A stretch of 9,253 nt of DNA, taken from a virus. Taxonomy: Duplodnaviria; Heunggongvirae; Uroviricota; Caudoviricetes. The DNA lies in the IMG/VR virus record IMGVR_UViG_2713896781_000016. The stretch is one strand, 5' to 3'. Below the pieces are notes generated by a model. The model was not told the origin of the DNA and did not search any database. It saw only the letters and a list, made by a program, of their open reading frames with translations. A program made the translations under genes and the position numbers. Position 1 is the stretch's first letter. Every line of letters begins with the position of its first letter. Below, one piece after another: positions 4,464-8,197 of the stretch.

Positions 4464-5210
4464 TTACTTCACAACCCTCTGATTGCTGACATTTGGACGC
4501 CAGCTATCCCAGTTAAACGTCACCCACCGACCACCGTTCATGGTCATGCGGTCCATAATCCTCTCACCAAGAAGCGTGCTCATTGCGGCATGATTCAGGT
4601 TTGTTAACATCCCGACACTGCACAGTGATGCTGTCCGGCGATCAATTATCTGGTGTAATACCACCTGCTCGTTTTTCGTCTCCCGCTGAACGCCTATTTC
4701 ATCCAGGACCAGCAAATCAACACTGCAAAGCTCCTGTAAAAATTTTTCCCCGGATTTGCCGTTGTCGTAGCTGTCATGCAACACGCTCATGACATCAGAC
4801 ACGGTGACGATAATCACGCTGCGCCCCTTCGCCATCAGCCGGTTACCCATCGCCGCTGCAAGGTGATTTTTCCCGGTGCCGGTTTTACCGCTGAACACAA
4901 AATTCGTGCACCCGGTCATCAGTTCGTCAGCTATGGATTTGGCCTGGCTCAGCGCGTATTTTTGCCCGTCGTTCTGCACCTGATAATTCGCAAACGAGCA
5001 TTTGCTGTGCAGAGGCTGGATGCCCGAACGATTCAGGATTTTTTCCACCCGCAACTGGTGATTCTGGCGGTTAATCTCCTCGCTGCGTTTTCGTCCTTCA
5101 ACAAGTTGCCATTCCCGCCACTCCTCCACCGTCCGGTACGGTGGAACCGACGCCTGTGGTGCAAGTCTGCGAATACGTTCAAGAACCCCGGCTGCCGCAA
5201 TGTTTTTCAT
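4464..5210 (-). CDS. DnaC-type replicative helicase loader (AAA+ ATPase)
   Basis: 248 aa; Walker A FVFSGKTGTGKNHLAAA, Walker B LLVLDEIGVQ, and C-terminal GMLTN...LGERIMDRM...WVTFNWDSWR closely parallel E. coli DnaC as recalled. ATG at 5210, 6 nt after the O-like stop. Confidence 0.9.
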   Translation of the reverse strand: MKNIAAAGVLERIRRLAPQASVPPYRTVEEWREWQLVEGRKRSEEINRQNHQLRVEKILNRSGIQPLHSKCSFANYQVQNDGQKYALSQAKSIADELMTGCTNFVFSGKTGTGKNHLAAAMGNRLMAKGRSVIIVTVSDVMSVLHDSYDNGKSGEKFLQELCSVDLLVLDEIGVQRETKNEQVVLHQIIDRRTASLCSVGMLTNLNHAAMSTLLGERIMDRMTMNGGRWVTFNWDSWRPNVSNQRVVK

Positions 5211-5216
5211 GCCACA

Positions 5217-6299
5217 TCACCCCCTGAATCCCGGCGGAATTTCGGTATCCGGTTCAGAAATATGATTCACACAACGCTGGTTGTTCGTGCCGCTTACCGG
5301 GAGCAACCAGGGGTTTTCAAAATTCCGGTCCGGCCCAAAAAACGTCGTCGCTCGCTGAACAAATTCCGTTCCCGTTTTCCCGGTAGCCGCCAGGTATCTT
5401 GCGTAACGCCTCACACCATCCAGTATGGCCTCTGGTGGCACCCCCTCGCGTAATCTGGCCTTCCAGGCACTGAAAGCGGATTTCTTCGGGTTTGCCCCAG
5501 CACGCAACGGGTATTCCCGCCAGACCTGTTCGAACACATCCGGATAATCCACTCGTCCCACAGGCTGCCCGGTGTTTTCCGGGACTACCCGATCGGCTTC
5601 CCGCTGAATGGCGGAATCGGCTTCAGGCTGCTGCAGTTGGTGTGATTGCTCCGGCCTTGCGGTCATCACCTGCTGCACAGCGCCCGAATCGGCTTTCAGC
5701 GCATACGCTGAATCGGCTTCCGGTGTCGTGCCTGCTGGCTGACCAGGATTGACGGTCTGAACATCCCCTGCCTGGTTCGTGGCGTTTTTTACGCCATGGA
5801 CCATAGTGTTTTGATCTTCTTGATCTGTATCTTTATCTGTATCTTTATCTGTATCTTTATCTGTCGTGACTCGTCGTGACATGTGCGTGACATTTCGTGA
5901 CGCGCCGTGACAATCGCCATTTTGTTCCCGCTTTCTTTCCCTCTCACGCTGCGCCCTCTTGCGCTCTGCCGGAGATTTTGCGGTTTGCGAAATATTGCCG
6001 TTGTCCTCTTTAAGCACCTGGCGTTTCTCCCATCCAGTGATTAAATCACCATCAAGTACCCGCCCCTGCATCGTCTGCAAAATTGAATCAATTACCTCTT
6101 CTGTCACGTCGAGCGCACTTGCCAAATCTTCTGTCGTGACATCAATGTGACCTCGCGTGACATTTCGTGACGCGCTCACCAGGAGGTGGATATACACTGC
6201 CATCACTGTTGCAATTGGCTGCCCTGACACCCTGGCAATTGTTCGCCACTTAGGGTCATTTGGCATGTCATGCCATAATCTGAGCCAAGCGTTAGCCAT
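5217..6299 (-). CDS. Phage replication initiation protein (lambda O-like replisome organiser) containing internal iteron arrays
   Basis: ATG at 6299 with GGAGG 5 nt upstream (track start 6305 is GTG). Immediately upstream of the DnaC-like gene. Central low-complexity linker (TDKD)x4 coincides with DNA tandem repeats and CGTGAC iterons, as with lambda ori inside O. Confidence 0.75.
   Translation of the reverse strand: MANAWLRLWHDMPNDPKWRTIARVSGQPIATVMAVYIHLLVSASRNVTRGHIDVTTEDLASALDVTEEVIDSILQTMQGRVLDGDLITGWEKRQVLKEDNGNISQTAKSPAERKRAQRERERKREQNGDCHGASRNVTHMSRRVTTDKDTDKDTDKDTDQEDQNTMVHGVKNATNQAGDVQTVNPGQPAGTTPEADSAYALKADSGAVQQVMTARPEQSHQLQQPEADSAIQREADRVVPENTGQPVGRVDYPDVFEQVWREYPLRAGANPKKSAFSAWKARLREGVPPEAILDGVRRYARYLAATGKTGTEFVQRATTFFGPDRNFENPWLLPVSGTNNQRCVNHISEPDTEIPPGFRG
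5823..5864. repeat. 12-bp tandem repeat (ATCTGTATCTTT) x3.5
   Basis: Exact units at 5823-5834, 5835-5846, 5847-5858 plus partial 5859-5864; encodes TDKDTDKDTDKD on the minus strand. Confidence 0.9.
5865..5911. repeat. Iteron array: five CGTGAC copies at 10-11 bp spacing (putative origin core)
   Basis: CGTGAC at 5865, 5875, 5886, 5896, 5906; followed by a pyrimidine/T-rich stretch 5912-5945. Confidence 0.6.
6103..6175. repeat. Second iteron cluster plus an exact 21-bp direct repeat of the first cluster
   Basis: CGTGAC at 6135, 6156, 6166; variant TGTGAC at 6146; inverted copy GTCACG at 6103-6108. GCGTGACATTTCGTGACGCGC is identical at 5885-5905 and 6155-6175. Confidence 0.55.
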
Positions 6300-6370
6300 A
6301 CTCACCTCCTCTGATACCGAATCTTTTTACTCACGAATTGCCGGAAGCGATTCGATATGGCTATTGTCAG

Positions 6371-6796
6371 TCAATGTACTGCCACAGCATTTCCTGCCGG
6401 GCCACCACGGTTCATCTGATTGAAACCGGCGATTGCCACTGCGACAAAATCATCAGCGTCTCTCACCAGTCGCTCCCGCGTCTCCACCAGCTCCCGAAAA
6501 TAAGTTGAACTGTGGCTGCGCATTCTGGCCACCAGCAAAGGTGGCATTGCCTTTTCGATCGCTGGTAACAACGCCTGAATTTTTTCAACTGCATCAGGGG
6601 TGTCTTTCTCTATCCAGCGGAAAATTTTCTGGGTATTGCGAGCCAGGGCTTCCGGATGGCTGTCGTCATACAGTTCCGGGAACGTCATACCCAGTTCGAA
6701 ATACGCTTTGGTAATCTTCGCAGTCGGTACTTTTTCGCCGTCCGGATGCGCCCAGGCATTCATCGCCATGCGGATGTGTTCATGCTTGATTTTCAT
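6371..6796 (-). CDS. YdaT-like protein (cII-analogous position), 141 aa
   Basis: Internal ATG at 6796 gives MKIKHEHIRMAMNAW..., matching the YdaT N-terminus as recalled; G-rich SD upstream. The track N-terminal extension to 6868 looks non-coding. Confidence 0.7.
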   Translation of the reverse strand: MKIKHEHIRMAMNAWAHPDGEKVPTAKITKAYFELGMTFPELYDDSHPEALARNTQKIFRWIEKDTPDAVEKIQALLPAIEKAMPPLLVARMRSHSSTYFRELVETRERLVRDADDFVAVAIAGFNQMNRGGPAGNAVAVH

Positions 6797-7022
6797 GAAT
6801 CCCCCCTTGGTTAGAAGGCGGATTATGATCAGAATCGGGAATGACAACCGTCGGTATGTGTAACTCATATTTGAGCGCCCCGGCAGTGACTGCCTGAATT
6901 AGCAACGCCCATTTCCACGGAACGTCTTCCCCCCACATGCTGACTGTGGTTTTTGACGTTCCTAGAGCGGCGGCTGTTTTAACAACTCCGCCAAAATAGC
7001 CTAATACTTCTGATTTTTTCAT
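6780..7022 (-). CDS. Cro/YdaS-like HTH regulator (80 aa)
   Basis: ATG at 7022 with GGAG 9 nt upstream; MKKSEVLGYFGGVVKTAAALGTSKTTVSMWGE is a Cro/YdaS-type HTH. Divergent from the repressor across a 91-bp operator region; 3' end overlaps the YdaT-like start by 17 nt. Confidence 0.8.
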   Translation of the reverse strand: MKKSEVLGYFGGVVKTAAALGTSKTTVSMWGEDVPWKWALLIQAVTAGALKYELHIPTVVIPDSDHNPPSNQGGIHENQA

Positions 7023-7050
7023 GAGTCGCTCCATAAAACTGAACGCCAAA

Positions 7051-7114
7051 AGTTTAATAATCAAAACCAAAGAAAGTCAAGAAACAAAACCATCTGTGTT
7101 TTAAAATCAAAACA
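7051..7114. promoter_or_regulatory. OR-like operator region with two GTTT-N8-AAAC palindromes (7051-7068 and 7097-7114) and a possible leaderless PRM (-10 TAAAAT at 7102-7107)
   Basis: aGTTTaataatcaAAACc at 7051-7068 and TGTTTTaaaatcAAAACA at 7097-7114; the latter abuts the repressor ATG at 7114, which has no SD. Confidence 0.5.
7052..7080 (-). promoter_or_regulatory. PR-like promoter for the cro operon (-35 TTGACT at 7080-7075, 17-bp spacer, -10 TAAACT at 7057-7052)
   Basis: Read on the reverse complement; same -10 hexamer as the PL-like promoter; overlapped by an operator-like palindrome at 7051-7068. Confidence 0.5.
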
Positions 7115-7752
7115 TGAACAAGCAAACAATATCTGAACGCATAACCCAACGTATGCATGCGCTAAACTTGAAAGGCAAAGACCTTGTCAATGCCACTGGC
7201 GCATCAAAAGGCTCCGTAAGTCAATGGATGAACGGTGGAGGAGCGCCGTCCTCGCGTTACATAAGTTCACTGGCAAAGATATTGAAAGTAAACGAAAATT
7301 GGCTTCTTAATGGAGGAGAGTTAAATACAGGTGATTCGCTTGATCTATCTTTACCGCCGATAAAAACGGTTCCGCTACTATCACTTCAGCAGGCAGCAAG
7401 CTGGAGTGATTATATGAAAAATTCCTCAATAACCTCTTGTGTGCAGCTTGTCGGAGAAATCCCGGCCAATACCTTTGCTGTTGTTCTAGAGAGTGACAGT
7501 ATGTCGACATCTGGTGGTGGAGTTTCCATCCCAAATGGTTCAACAGTTTTTGTTGATCCCGATCGAATCGTACAACCAGGAAATATTGTCCTTGCCTTAC
7601 CCAAAGGGACCACAACGCCTGTCATTCGCAAACTGGAGATAGAAGGGCCGGATATTCTTTTAGTCCCCACGAATCCTCGCTACCCTTCAATTATGCTGGA
7701 TGATCTATCTTGCATATTGGGAGTATGCTTTAAAATTCAACAAGATATTTAA
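7114..7752 (+). CDS. CI/LexA-like prophage repressor: N-terminal XRE-type HTH plus C-terminal S24 peptidase domain
   Basis: 212 aa; N-terminal ISERITQRMHALNLKGKDLVNATGASKGSVSQWMNG; C-terminal DSM serine motif and VIRKL lysine consistent with an S24 Ser/Lys dyad. Confidence 0.9.
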   Translation: MNKQTISERITQRMHALNLKGKDLVNATGASKGSVSQWMNGGGAPSSRYISSLAKILKVNENWLLNGGELNTGDSLDLSLPPIKTVPLLSLQQAASWSDYMKNSSITSCVQLVGEIPANTFAVVLESDSMSTSGGGVSIPNGSTVFVDPDRIVQPGNIVLALPKGTTTPVIRKLEIEGPDILLVPTNPRYPSIMLDDLSCILGVCFKIQQDI

Positions 7753-7780
7753 CCAACCTCATCTATTTGATTAACTGTAT

Positions 7781-7797
7781 GCCATCGTAGTGATGGC
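7781..7797 (+). terminator. Inverted repeat GCCATC-gtagt-GATGGC 29 nt after the repressor stop; possible weak terminator or protein-binding site
   Basis: Perfect 6-bp arms with 5-nt loop; no clear U-tract follows, so terminator function is uncertain. Confidence 0.3.
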
Positions 7798-7818
7798 GTA
7801 ACAGCTGCCTGCTTAAAA

Positions 7819-7865
7819 TGTTTTGATAAAAAAACATTGACCTTAAATGTTCATTTTTCTAAACT
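7819..7865 (+). promoter_or_regulatory. PL-like promoter (-35 TTGACC 7837-7842, 17-bp spacer, -10 TAAACT 7860-7865) with two operator-like palindromes
   Basis: TGTTTTgataaaAAAACA at 7819-7836 shares arms and 6-bp spacer with the OR site at 7097-7114; tGTTCatttttctAAACt at 7848-7865 overlaps the -10. Confidence 0.5.
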
Positions 7866-8044
7866 TCATTCATTCCCTCACCCCGCCCCACAGAATGCAG
7901 GGCAATACTTCGAGTTACCAGGCAGTGGTCAGGGGTTAAGTAGCCAGCCCGAGGCGTAAGAACATGACGGCAGGGTTCAACTTTAATAACTATGCAGCAG
8001 GTTTTTGTTCCGCTACCCCGGCGTTAAGGGGAAATGAGGTCAGC

Positions 8045-8197
8045 ATGGATACTATCGATCTTGGCAACAACGAATCTCTGGTATGTGGCGTGTTTCCCAA
8101 TCAGGACGGCACGTTTACCGCGATGACGTATACCAGAAGCAAAACGTTTAAAACTGAAGCTGGCGCGCGTCGCTGGTTAGCCAGAAACACTGACTGA
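8045..8197 (+). CDS. Small early-left protein (50 aa; alternative 77-aa form from ATG 7964), possibly YdaF/DUF1391-like
   Basis: ATG at 8045 with GAGG 5 nt upstream; MDTIDLGNNESLVCGVFPNQDGTFTAMTYTRSKTFKTEAGARRWLARNTD. Stop overlaps the next candidate start (TGATG). Family resemblance is recalled, not verified. Confidence 0.45.
   Translation: MDTIDLGNNESLVCGVFPNQDGTFTAMTYTRSKTFKTEAGARRWLARNTD

Follow-up and report, generated by a model that had tools for sequence, protein, structure and literature searches.

Introduction

Which DNA sites does the repressor of an Sp11-type prophage recognize, and where does the messenger RNA of this repressor begin? These questions are raised by the immunity region of a 9,253-nucleotide (nt) stretch of viral DNA (IMG/VR record IMGVR_UViG_2713896781_000016), here called the window, which is part of a lambda-like Escherichia coli prophage in reverse orientation. 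Its region 7000-7900 shows 99.9% identity to prophage Sp11 of strain O157:H7 Sakai. A cI-like repressor gene (7114-7752, + strand; 212 amino acids, helix-turn-helix (HTH) and S24 domains) and a gene of the P22-Cro family (6780-7022, - strand; 80 amino acids; same coordinates annotated in ON470612 and RefSeq) are divergent, with a 91-bp gap between the cro ATG at 7022 and the cI ATG at 7114. An earlier note on this DNA had proposed a shared operator motif, GTTT-N8-AAAC, at the promoter regions on both sides of the repressor gene, together with a leaderless repressor mRNA. The analysis presented here indicates, with high probability, that the GTTT-N8-AAAC sites are the operators of CI and Cro. 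The segment 6797-7878 is probably the immunity module of Sp11, a CI/Cro bistable switch.

The GTTT-N8-AAAC motif is enriched in the two gaps flanking the repressor gene

The exact motif is present in three copies in the window (7052-7067, 7098-7113 and 7820-7835), and all three fall in the two regulatory gaps that flank the repressor gene. The chance expectation is 0.19 copies, and none of 200 dinucleotide shuffles of the whole window yielded three. Because both gaps are rich in A+T (66-68%), they were additionally shuffled on their own; none of 5,000 such shuffles had three copies of the motif, while any 4-mer dyad with a gap of 0-12 nt reached this number in 48 and spanned both gaps in 12. 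When all 4- and 5-mer dyads common to both gaps were listed without bias, the GTTT-N8-AAAC family was the only one. Two of the sites, named OR3 and OL2 below, are perfect 6+6 dyads (TGTTTT-N6-AAAACA), and the operator is very likely an 18-bp dyad with the consensus TGTTTw-N6-wAAACA and the core GTTT-N8-AAAC. Taken together with the conservation and the cross-genus recurrence described below, this enrichment bears out the claim of a motif shared by both promoter regions. The further claim of four sites of the same type held for the three exact copies; the fourth (7848-7865) reads GTTC-N8-AAAC and thus carries one mismatch. A fifth, half-degenerate site at 7074-7091 had been overlooked.

The sites are phased on the promoters

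A consensus scan found the PR-like and the PL-like promoter, both with the -10 box TAAACT, as the earlier note had stated. The PR-like promoter for cro (7080-7051, - strand) consists of the -35 box TTGACT (7080-7075), an 18-nt spacer and the -10 box (7056-7051), with a predicted start at approximately 7044; its hexamers and spacer length are identical to those of PR933P of prophage CP-933P. The OR1-like operator (AGTTTAATAATCAAAACC, 7051-7068), an exact motif, lies over this -10 box with its centre at -15.5 from the predicted start, and its core positions are invariant in all relatives compared. The OR3-like operator (TGTTTTAAAATCAAAACA, 7097-7114), one of the two perfect dyads, lies over the putative -10 box of cI, and its last base is the A of the cI ATG; relatives show no variation at 7097-7108 and 7110-7117. 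Between these two, 7074-7091 (AAGTCAAGAAACAAAACC) is a candidate weak OR2-like operator. It does not match the motif: its right half is intact, and the left half, which overlaps the PR -35 box, is degenerate. CAAAAC half-sites end at 7067, 7090 and 7113, in steps of exactly 23 bp, and relatives with a CI of 83-84% identity have no changes in the block 7069-7091.

On the other side of the repressor gene, the PL-like promoter (7837-7865, + strand) combines TTGACC (7837-7842) with a 17-nt spacer and TAAACT, with a predicted start at approximately 7872. It is homologous to dicBp of the Qin prophage (TTGACC-N17-TAATCT) and to PL933P, and it is predicted to drive the ydfA(DUF1391)...dicB...exonuclease operon. 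The OL2-like operator (TGTTTTGATAAAAAAACA, 7819-7836; centre at -44.5), an exact motif, ends 1 nt before the PL -35 box; no change in its GTTT or AAAC occurs among 88 loci. The OL1-like operator (TGTTCATTTTTCTAAACT, 7848-7865) is the site with one mismatch and is located in the PL spacer and -10 box. Since the AAAC half-site sits inside the -10 box in the same register at PR and PL, OR1 and OL1 both centre at -15.5. Matches with one mismatch occur at chance level in the window (8 vs. 4.9 expected), and therefore the assignment of OL1 rests on its OR1-like register on the -10 box and on the exact match in L090, a relative from the group with 83-84% identity in CI. The GTTT half becomes exact in relatives L090 and L092 (7852 C>T), and the reverse complement of OL1 shows a single difference, over 18 positions, from an exact site of Pseudomonas phage PP9W. 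The earlier note had all four of its sites overlapping a -10 or -35 box of PR or PL. This applies to OR1 and OL1, which lie on the -10 boxes, whereas 7819-7836 merely abuts the PL -35 box and 7097-7114 covers the putative cI -10 box instead of an element of PR or PL.

A hairpin (GCCATC-gtagt-GATGGC, 7781-7797) is located between the cI stop codon and PL. Across 88 loci the stem does not vary, while changes occur in the loop (7787, 7789-7791) and in the flanks (7780, 7798). With no T-run after it on either strand, the hairpin does not qualify as a canonical terminator.

The site cores are conserved among close relatives

Relatives with a CI that is 83-84% identical keep the recognition helix, and their substitutions (7023-48, 7068, 7092-96 and 7109) fall outside the site cores. 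Across 88 loci, 2 of the 32 core tetranucleotide positions are variable, compared with 73 of the 185 other noncoding positions (Fisher p=8e-5, a rough guide only, as the count takes related haplotypes and alignment columns as independent). A scan of IMG/VR returned 80 loci, all with a CI that is 99-100% identical, and these served for the polymorphism counts only.

Polymorphism is much higher on the OL side, with 41 haplotypes, than on the OR side, with 11. Several changes are expected to weaken PL or OL2: TAAACT to TAAACC in three loci, TTGACC to CTGACC in two, and a 1-bp deletion in the OL2 spacer, at 7828, in four. The loci with changes at 7828, 7837 or 7865 are L007, L023, L024, L045, L047, L050, L068, L088 and L089. 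The polymorphism of the OL side is consistent with expression of the toxic dicB operon being in decay or selected against.

Heteroimmune relatives define the limits of the module

The phages and prophages vB_EcoS-689R5, Tritos and CP-933P share ydaT up to approximately 6797 and the transcribed PL leader from approximately 7879; Rac of K-12 also has this leader. Homology to all four breaks at approximately 6797 and 7878. Between the breaks, vB_EcoS-689R5, Tritos and CP-933P have different repressor and cro genes and their own dyads at OR and OL, which are ATCTAAA/TTTAGAT in vB_EcoS-689R5, GTAC-based in Tritos and GTTT-N10-AAAC in CP-933P. This pattern of heteroimmune exchange is the classic signature of an immunity module, and thus places the operators of the Sp11-type module between 6797 and 7878.

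Two observations concern the module borders. The PL leader (7879-8044), which begins with CACCCCGCCCCACAGAA, is conserved across the heteroimmune prophages (Rac, CP-933P, Tritos and vB_EcoS-689R5), and its first 80 nt match in 3,454 of 5,426 genomes. A role in Rho loading or in antitermination is conceivable for its C-rich start; a structured antitermination RNA was considered and rejected, the fold of 7872-8050 being no better than that of shuffled sequences (z=+1.18). At the other border, where the immunity module begins, the cro/ydaT junction (6786-6803) reads TTGATT-N6-AATCCC, which is the high-affinity YdaT operator of CP-933P with one half damaged. In the Sp11-type module, the repressor may be under weaker control of the CII type.

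The motif recurs beside related repressors in phages of other genera

Word-indexed protein searches with the full-length CI and with its N-terminal domain returned nothing beyond near-identical E. coli sequences, and a genome scan with the CI protein against species-representative genomes gave only three spurious S24-domain matches in Mycobacterium and Alicyclobacillus. Distant relatives of the DNA-binding domain were recovered by tblastn against phage genomes.

Acinetobacter phage BUCTT20 has a repressor with a DNA-binding domain that is 50% identical (helix 3, KKGTVSKW) and a C-terminal part that is unrelated. Four exact GTTT-N8-AAAC sites are present in 2.6 kb, where 0.10 are expected: the gap between cro and the repressor gene holds two, and the other two follow downstream of the repressor gene, the last of them on a TTGACA-N16-TAAACT promoter. 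In Pseudomonas phage PP9W the domain is 35% identical (helix SKGTLSHW), and four sites with at most one mismatch are found vs. 0.91 expected. One pair of these is upstream of the gene for the repressor; the other pair accompanies a TTGACC-N17-TAAATT promoter whose spacer and -10 box hold an operator, as at PL. Furthermore, as at OR3, the last base of the operator 18-mer in PP9W is the A of the repressor's ATG, and that ATG is without a Shine-Dalgarno sequence. Acinetobacter phage Attikon1 (46% identical, helix ARGTVSGW) has GAACA/TGTTC dyads instead, and no GTTT-N8-AAAC site was found in its regulatory region. The presence of the motif in BUCTT20 and PP9W and its absence from Attikon1 show that it tracks the DNA-binding domain and the recognition helix rather than the host or other parts of the protein.

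CI and Cro belong to known families of DNA-binding proteins

The repressor matches the Pfam families Peptidase_S24 (8e-13) and HTH_3 (2e-4) and aligns to lambda CI (residues 13-204), P22 C2 (1-69) and the 434 repressor (6-67). It consists of a five-helix HTH domain (residues 1-68) with the recognition helix K32-M39 and an S24 LexA-like domain. In the AlphaFold2 model the N-terminal domain has five helices (predicted local distance difference test (pLDDT) values of 72-89), with helix 1 formed by residues 6-16; the C-terminal domain is of low confidence (pLDDT approximately 30) since the alignment had only five sequences, and the N-terminal domain alone was used. Cro matches Pfam P22_Cro (E=1e-15) and the P22 Cro structure 1rzs (E=3e-8 over residues 1-53). 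The two proteins have similar recognition helices, SKTTVSMW in Cro and SKGSVSQW in CI, and Cro is expected to read the same sites as CI. The annotation of this Cro as a DicC orthologue in ON470612 was not upheld, as BLASTP detects no similarity to DicC of K-12.

Ser129 and Lys173 of CI align with Ser149 and Lys192 of lambda CI, so the catalytic pair is retained. The bond aligned to the lambda cleavage site Ala111-Gly112 is Ala94-Ala95 in CI (window positions 7393-7398), and the equivalent bond in BUCTT20 is Ala-Ser according to our own reading of its sequence. The repressor may be poorly inducible by RecA, or not inducible at all.

The annotated starts of cI differ: ON470612 has 7153, and RefSeq/PGAP and Sakai have 7414, which yields a C-terminal fragment of 112 amino acids. 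The full frame of 212 amino acids from 7114 is intact and identical in Sakai (ECs_2209; 1615-2253 of locus L100). In a survey of 2009 the Sp11 repressor was scored as disrupted (Asadulghani et al. 2009, PMC2669165). Gene callers were probably misled by the missing Shine-Dalgarno sequence.

The start of cI and its mRNA

The earlier note had described a repressor ATG at 7114 that lacks a Shine-Dalgarno sequence and closely follows a TAAAAT box, and both observations proved correct. No Shine-Dalgarno-like string is present in 7094-7113, the 20 nt before the ATG, and TAAAAT (7102-7107) is followed by 6 nt and the ATG; cro, by contrast, has GGAG 7 nt before its ATG. An in-frame TAA at 7102-7104 precludes a start upstream of 7114. 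The next ATG, at 7153 (M14), lies inside helix 1, and 7114 is the only start that keeps this helix. TAAAAT would be the -10 box of a PRM-like promoter on the + strand, which the consensus scan did not call because its -35 box (AAGAAA, 7079-7084) is poor.

In lambda PRM, TAGATT precedes the cI ATG at the same distance of 6 nt. The spacing is also that of paaR2 of CP-933P, where GATAAT is followed by 6 nt and the ATG. The paaR2 mRNA is leaderless according to 5' RACE (rapid amplification of cDNA ends), N-terminal sequencing and mass spectrometry (PMC8630535). On these grounds we lean towards a PRM-type cI transcript that is leaderless, its first base being the A of the ATG at 7114.

A proposed mechanism and the points that speak against it

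The switch would work as follows. CI dimers on OR1 and OL1 would cover the -10 boxes of PR and PL and repress both promoters, and OR2 (on the PR -35 box) and OL2 (just upstream of the PL -35 box) would probably add cooperative binding. OR3 covers the -10 box and start point of the cI promoter; therefore, an excess of CI, or Cro after induction, would shut off cI. The maintenance transcript of cI would most likely begin at the A of the ATG, as for lambda cI and paaR2.

Several points weigh against this picture, apart from the statistical reservation made above for the conservation count. The putative cI promoter has no recognizable -35 box. OR2 is a half-site only, and OL1 is mismatched while sites with one mismatch are at chance level in the window. 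The conservation of the AAAC halves of OR1 and OL1 might be owed to the promoters, since they are part of the -10 box TAAACT, which is also found in CP-933P with unrelated repressors. In addition, a cI start at 7114 puts the operator centres at -8.5, -31.5 and -54.5. In lambda, OR2 is centred at -42 from the PRM start and is activating; here the operators lie approximately 10 bp closer, and OR2 at -31.5 would thus repress and not activate. With such a start, the -35 regions of PR and cI would overlap, which suggests promoter competition rather than lambda-style activation.

Alternative explanations

The operators could be real and the cI mRNA nevertheless not leaderless. In that case cI would be transcribed from a promoter further upstream, e.g., a PRE-like one inside or beyond cro, with an A-rich leader that has no Shine-Dalgarno sequence and is translated with the aid of S1, and TAAAAT would be merely operator sequence. 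This is the less probable course of events, though a realistic one. It would explain why no acceptable -35 box accompanies TAAAAT and no promoter is called there, and TANNNT hexamers are common at 68% A+T. CP-933P provides a precedent with its YdaT-controlled PRE-type promoter (PMC9986795). The scan did find a promoter-like sequence, TTAACA-N18-AATACT (6979-7008, + strand), inside the start of cro and pointing to cI. This may be an establishment promoter similar to PRE or have arisen by chance; three such matches are present in the scanned region where 2.7 are expected by chance, which detracts from its value as a candidate. A leader is further disfavoured by the distance between the -10 box and the ATG, which is the same as for lambda cI and for paaR2, whose start is proven by RACE, and by PP9W, which repeats the design of an operator that ends on the ATG. 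The leadered and the leaderless readings are compatible, since PRE-type leadered and PRM-type leaderless transcripts coexist in lambda.

The remaining two alternatives concern the sites themselves. Sites that contain AATCAA might be targets of the CII-like YdaT instead of CI and Cro, given that the YdaT of the window is 86% identical to that of CP-933P and that the half-site AATCAA occurs within OR1 and OR3 and TTGAT within OL2. The full YdaT site, TTGATT-N6-AATCAA, is however absent from OR and OL, and matches with up to three mismatches occur at the rate of chance (6 vs. 6.45 expected). The homologous YdaT site is instead found at the cro/ydaT junction (6786-6803, two mismatches), ydaT is also present in heteroimmune relatives without GTTT-N8-AAAC sites, and the motif follows the CI DNA-binding domain across genera, which leaves a role for YdaT at these sites very unlikely. 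Scarcely credible is the view that the dyads are a by-product of an AT-rich promoter scaffold, in which T and A tracts and the TAAACT -10 box create the pattern, and that they have no operator function. The composition of both regions (66-68% A+T) would favour such an origin, and two of the AAAC halves are indeed the -10 box, kept in CP-933P with unrelated repressors. Against this, the pattern almost never arises in shuffles of local composition, OR3 and OL2 are perfect 6+6 dyads away from the -10 boxes of PR and PL, and the motif is enriched beside homologous repressors in two unrelated phage genomes, while heteroimmune relatives have different dyads at the same positions. Operators bound by CI and Cro are hence the reading that we retain for the GTTT-N8-AAAC sites.

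Comparison with known switches

The architecture of the Sp11-type module is lambda-like, and its proteins are nearest to the DicA/P22 group, as judged from sequence comparison. Shared with lambda are divergent genes for the repressor and Cro between which lie three phased operators, the reuse of the same operator type at the promoter beyond cI, a repressor with HTH and S24 domains, and a -10 box 6 nt before a repressor ATG that has no Shine-Dalgarno sequence. The operators of lambda are spaced by 23-24 bp, compared with 23 bp here, and their centres lie at -17, -41 and -64 from the PR start; those of the Sp11 module, at -15.5, -38.5 and -61.5, are within 1.5-2.5 bp of these. The starts of PR and cI are approximately 83 bp apart in lambda, whereas the distance in the Sp11 module would be shorter, at 70 bp. 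Further differences from lambda are the operator sequence, the P22-type fold of Cro and the presence of only two visible OL sites, which are 29 bp apart.

The closest studied switch, PaaR2-YdaS-YdaT, is that of CP-933P/Sp12, a neighbouring prophage in the same strains. The CP-933P locus was fetched from a genome with a query rebuilt from the primer table of the paper describing it. As in the Sp11 module, its PR is TTGACT-N18-TAAACT, its PL has the -10 box TAAACT and the conserved leader, its YdaT is 86% identical, and its operators have GTTT/AAAC outer half-sites embedded in -10 boxes. The repressor and Cro-type proteins of CP-933P are, however, unrelated to those of the Sp11 module according to BLASTP, and PaaR2 has no S24 domain and heads a toxin-antitoxin operon. 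The half-sites are also spaced differently, GTTT-N10-AAAC in CP-933P (1733-1750, 1772-1789 and 2758-2775 of locus L096) vs. N8 in the Sp11 module, and neither region contains the spacing of the other. The centre of the OR3-equivalent site is at -20.5 from the repressor start in CP-933P and at -8.5 in the Sp11 module. In CP-933P, the starts mapped by 5' RACE agreed with the predicted PR933P and PRM933P (Jurenas et al. 2021, PMC8630535), and PL933P was proven with a reporter (PMC8630535). The repressor operon is fed by the YdaT-controlled PRE-type promoter, and YdaT binds TTGATT-N6-AATCAA (Prolic-Kalinsek et al. 2023, PMC9986795). The unrelated repressor/Cro pairs of Sp11 and CP-933P might read the same GTTT/AAAC half-sites, fixed by a shared TTGAC(T/C)...TAAACT scaffold, so that, within this lineage of prophages, the immunity specificity changes by swapping of the proteins and of the spacing (N8 vs. 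N10); we regard this idea as rather improbable. If it were true, there would be room for weak cross-talk between the switches of co-resident prophages, which also share the 86%-identical YdaT.

P22 operators are AT-rich dyads of 18 bp, and the recognition helix of C2 is SNVAISQW. The Cro of the Sp11 module belongs to the P22_Cro family and the N-terminal domain of CI aligns to C2; the operator sequence and the residues of the recognition helix (SKGSVSQW in CI) differ from those of P22. DicA of the Qin prophage in K-12 has a DNA-binding domain that is 37% identical to that of CI (E=1e-11). Its operator Oc is TGTTAG-N6-CTAACA (PMC3441716), i.e., the same 18-bp dyad as the Sp11 sites with one base changed per core half (GTTA/TAAC vs. 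GTTT/AAAC). At dicBp (TTGACC-N17-TAATCT) one operator lies in the spacer and -10 box and a second upstream of the -35 box, as at PL, and an operon similar in kind (ydfA...dicB) follows downstream. Unlike CI, DicA has no S24 domain, and the leader after the promoter differs until just before ydfA.

Genomic context and distribution

The gene order in the window is that of a lambdoid immunity region, with the repressor gene and cro divergent and with ydaT and replication genes downstream of cro. These are, all on the - strand, a YdaT-family gene (CII analogue; 6371-6796), an O-like replication gene (5217-6305) and a gene for a DnaC-type loader (4464-5210). A DUF1391/ydfA-type gene follows downstream of the repressor gene on the + strand, and related records run on rightwards into dicB and a gene for exonuclease VIII. 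An Rfam scan of the window gave no match in or near the immunity region; the only match was sok (113.5 bits, - strand), which marks a hok/sok-type locus at 1683-1857 that is adjoined by a run of 50 N (1620-1669).

Region 7000-7900, and with it this immunity type, is present at a coverage of at least 80% in 1,042 of 5,426 complete E. coli genomes, approximately a fifth, including O157:H7 Sakai and EDL933 and strains of O145 and O121. In the searchable literature, queried with the operator strings and with ECs2208/ECs2209, no description of the operators of the Sp11-type module was found.

Significance

The Sp11 module, widespread and previously undescribed, represents a well-known type of switch and leaves the accepted picture of lambdoid switches unchanged. 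Its immunity type governs an operon with the cell-division inhibitor gene dicB and an exonuclease gene. The repressor gene has been under-annotated, and the operator together with the true repressor of 212 amino acids provides a testable specificity for a common prophage. The recurrence of the motif in phages of Acinetobacter and Pseudomonas provides a small natural data set that links residues of the recognition helix to bases of the half-site.

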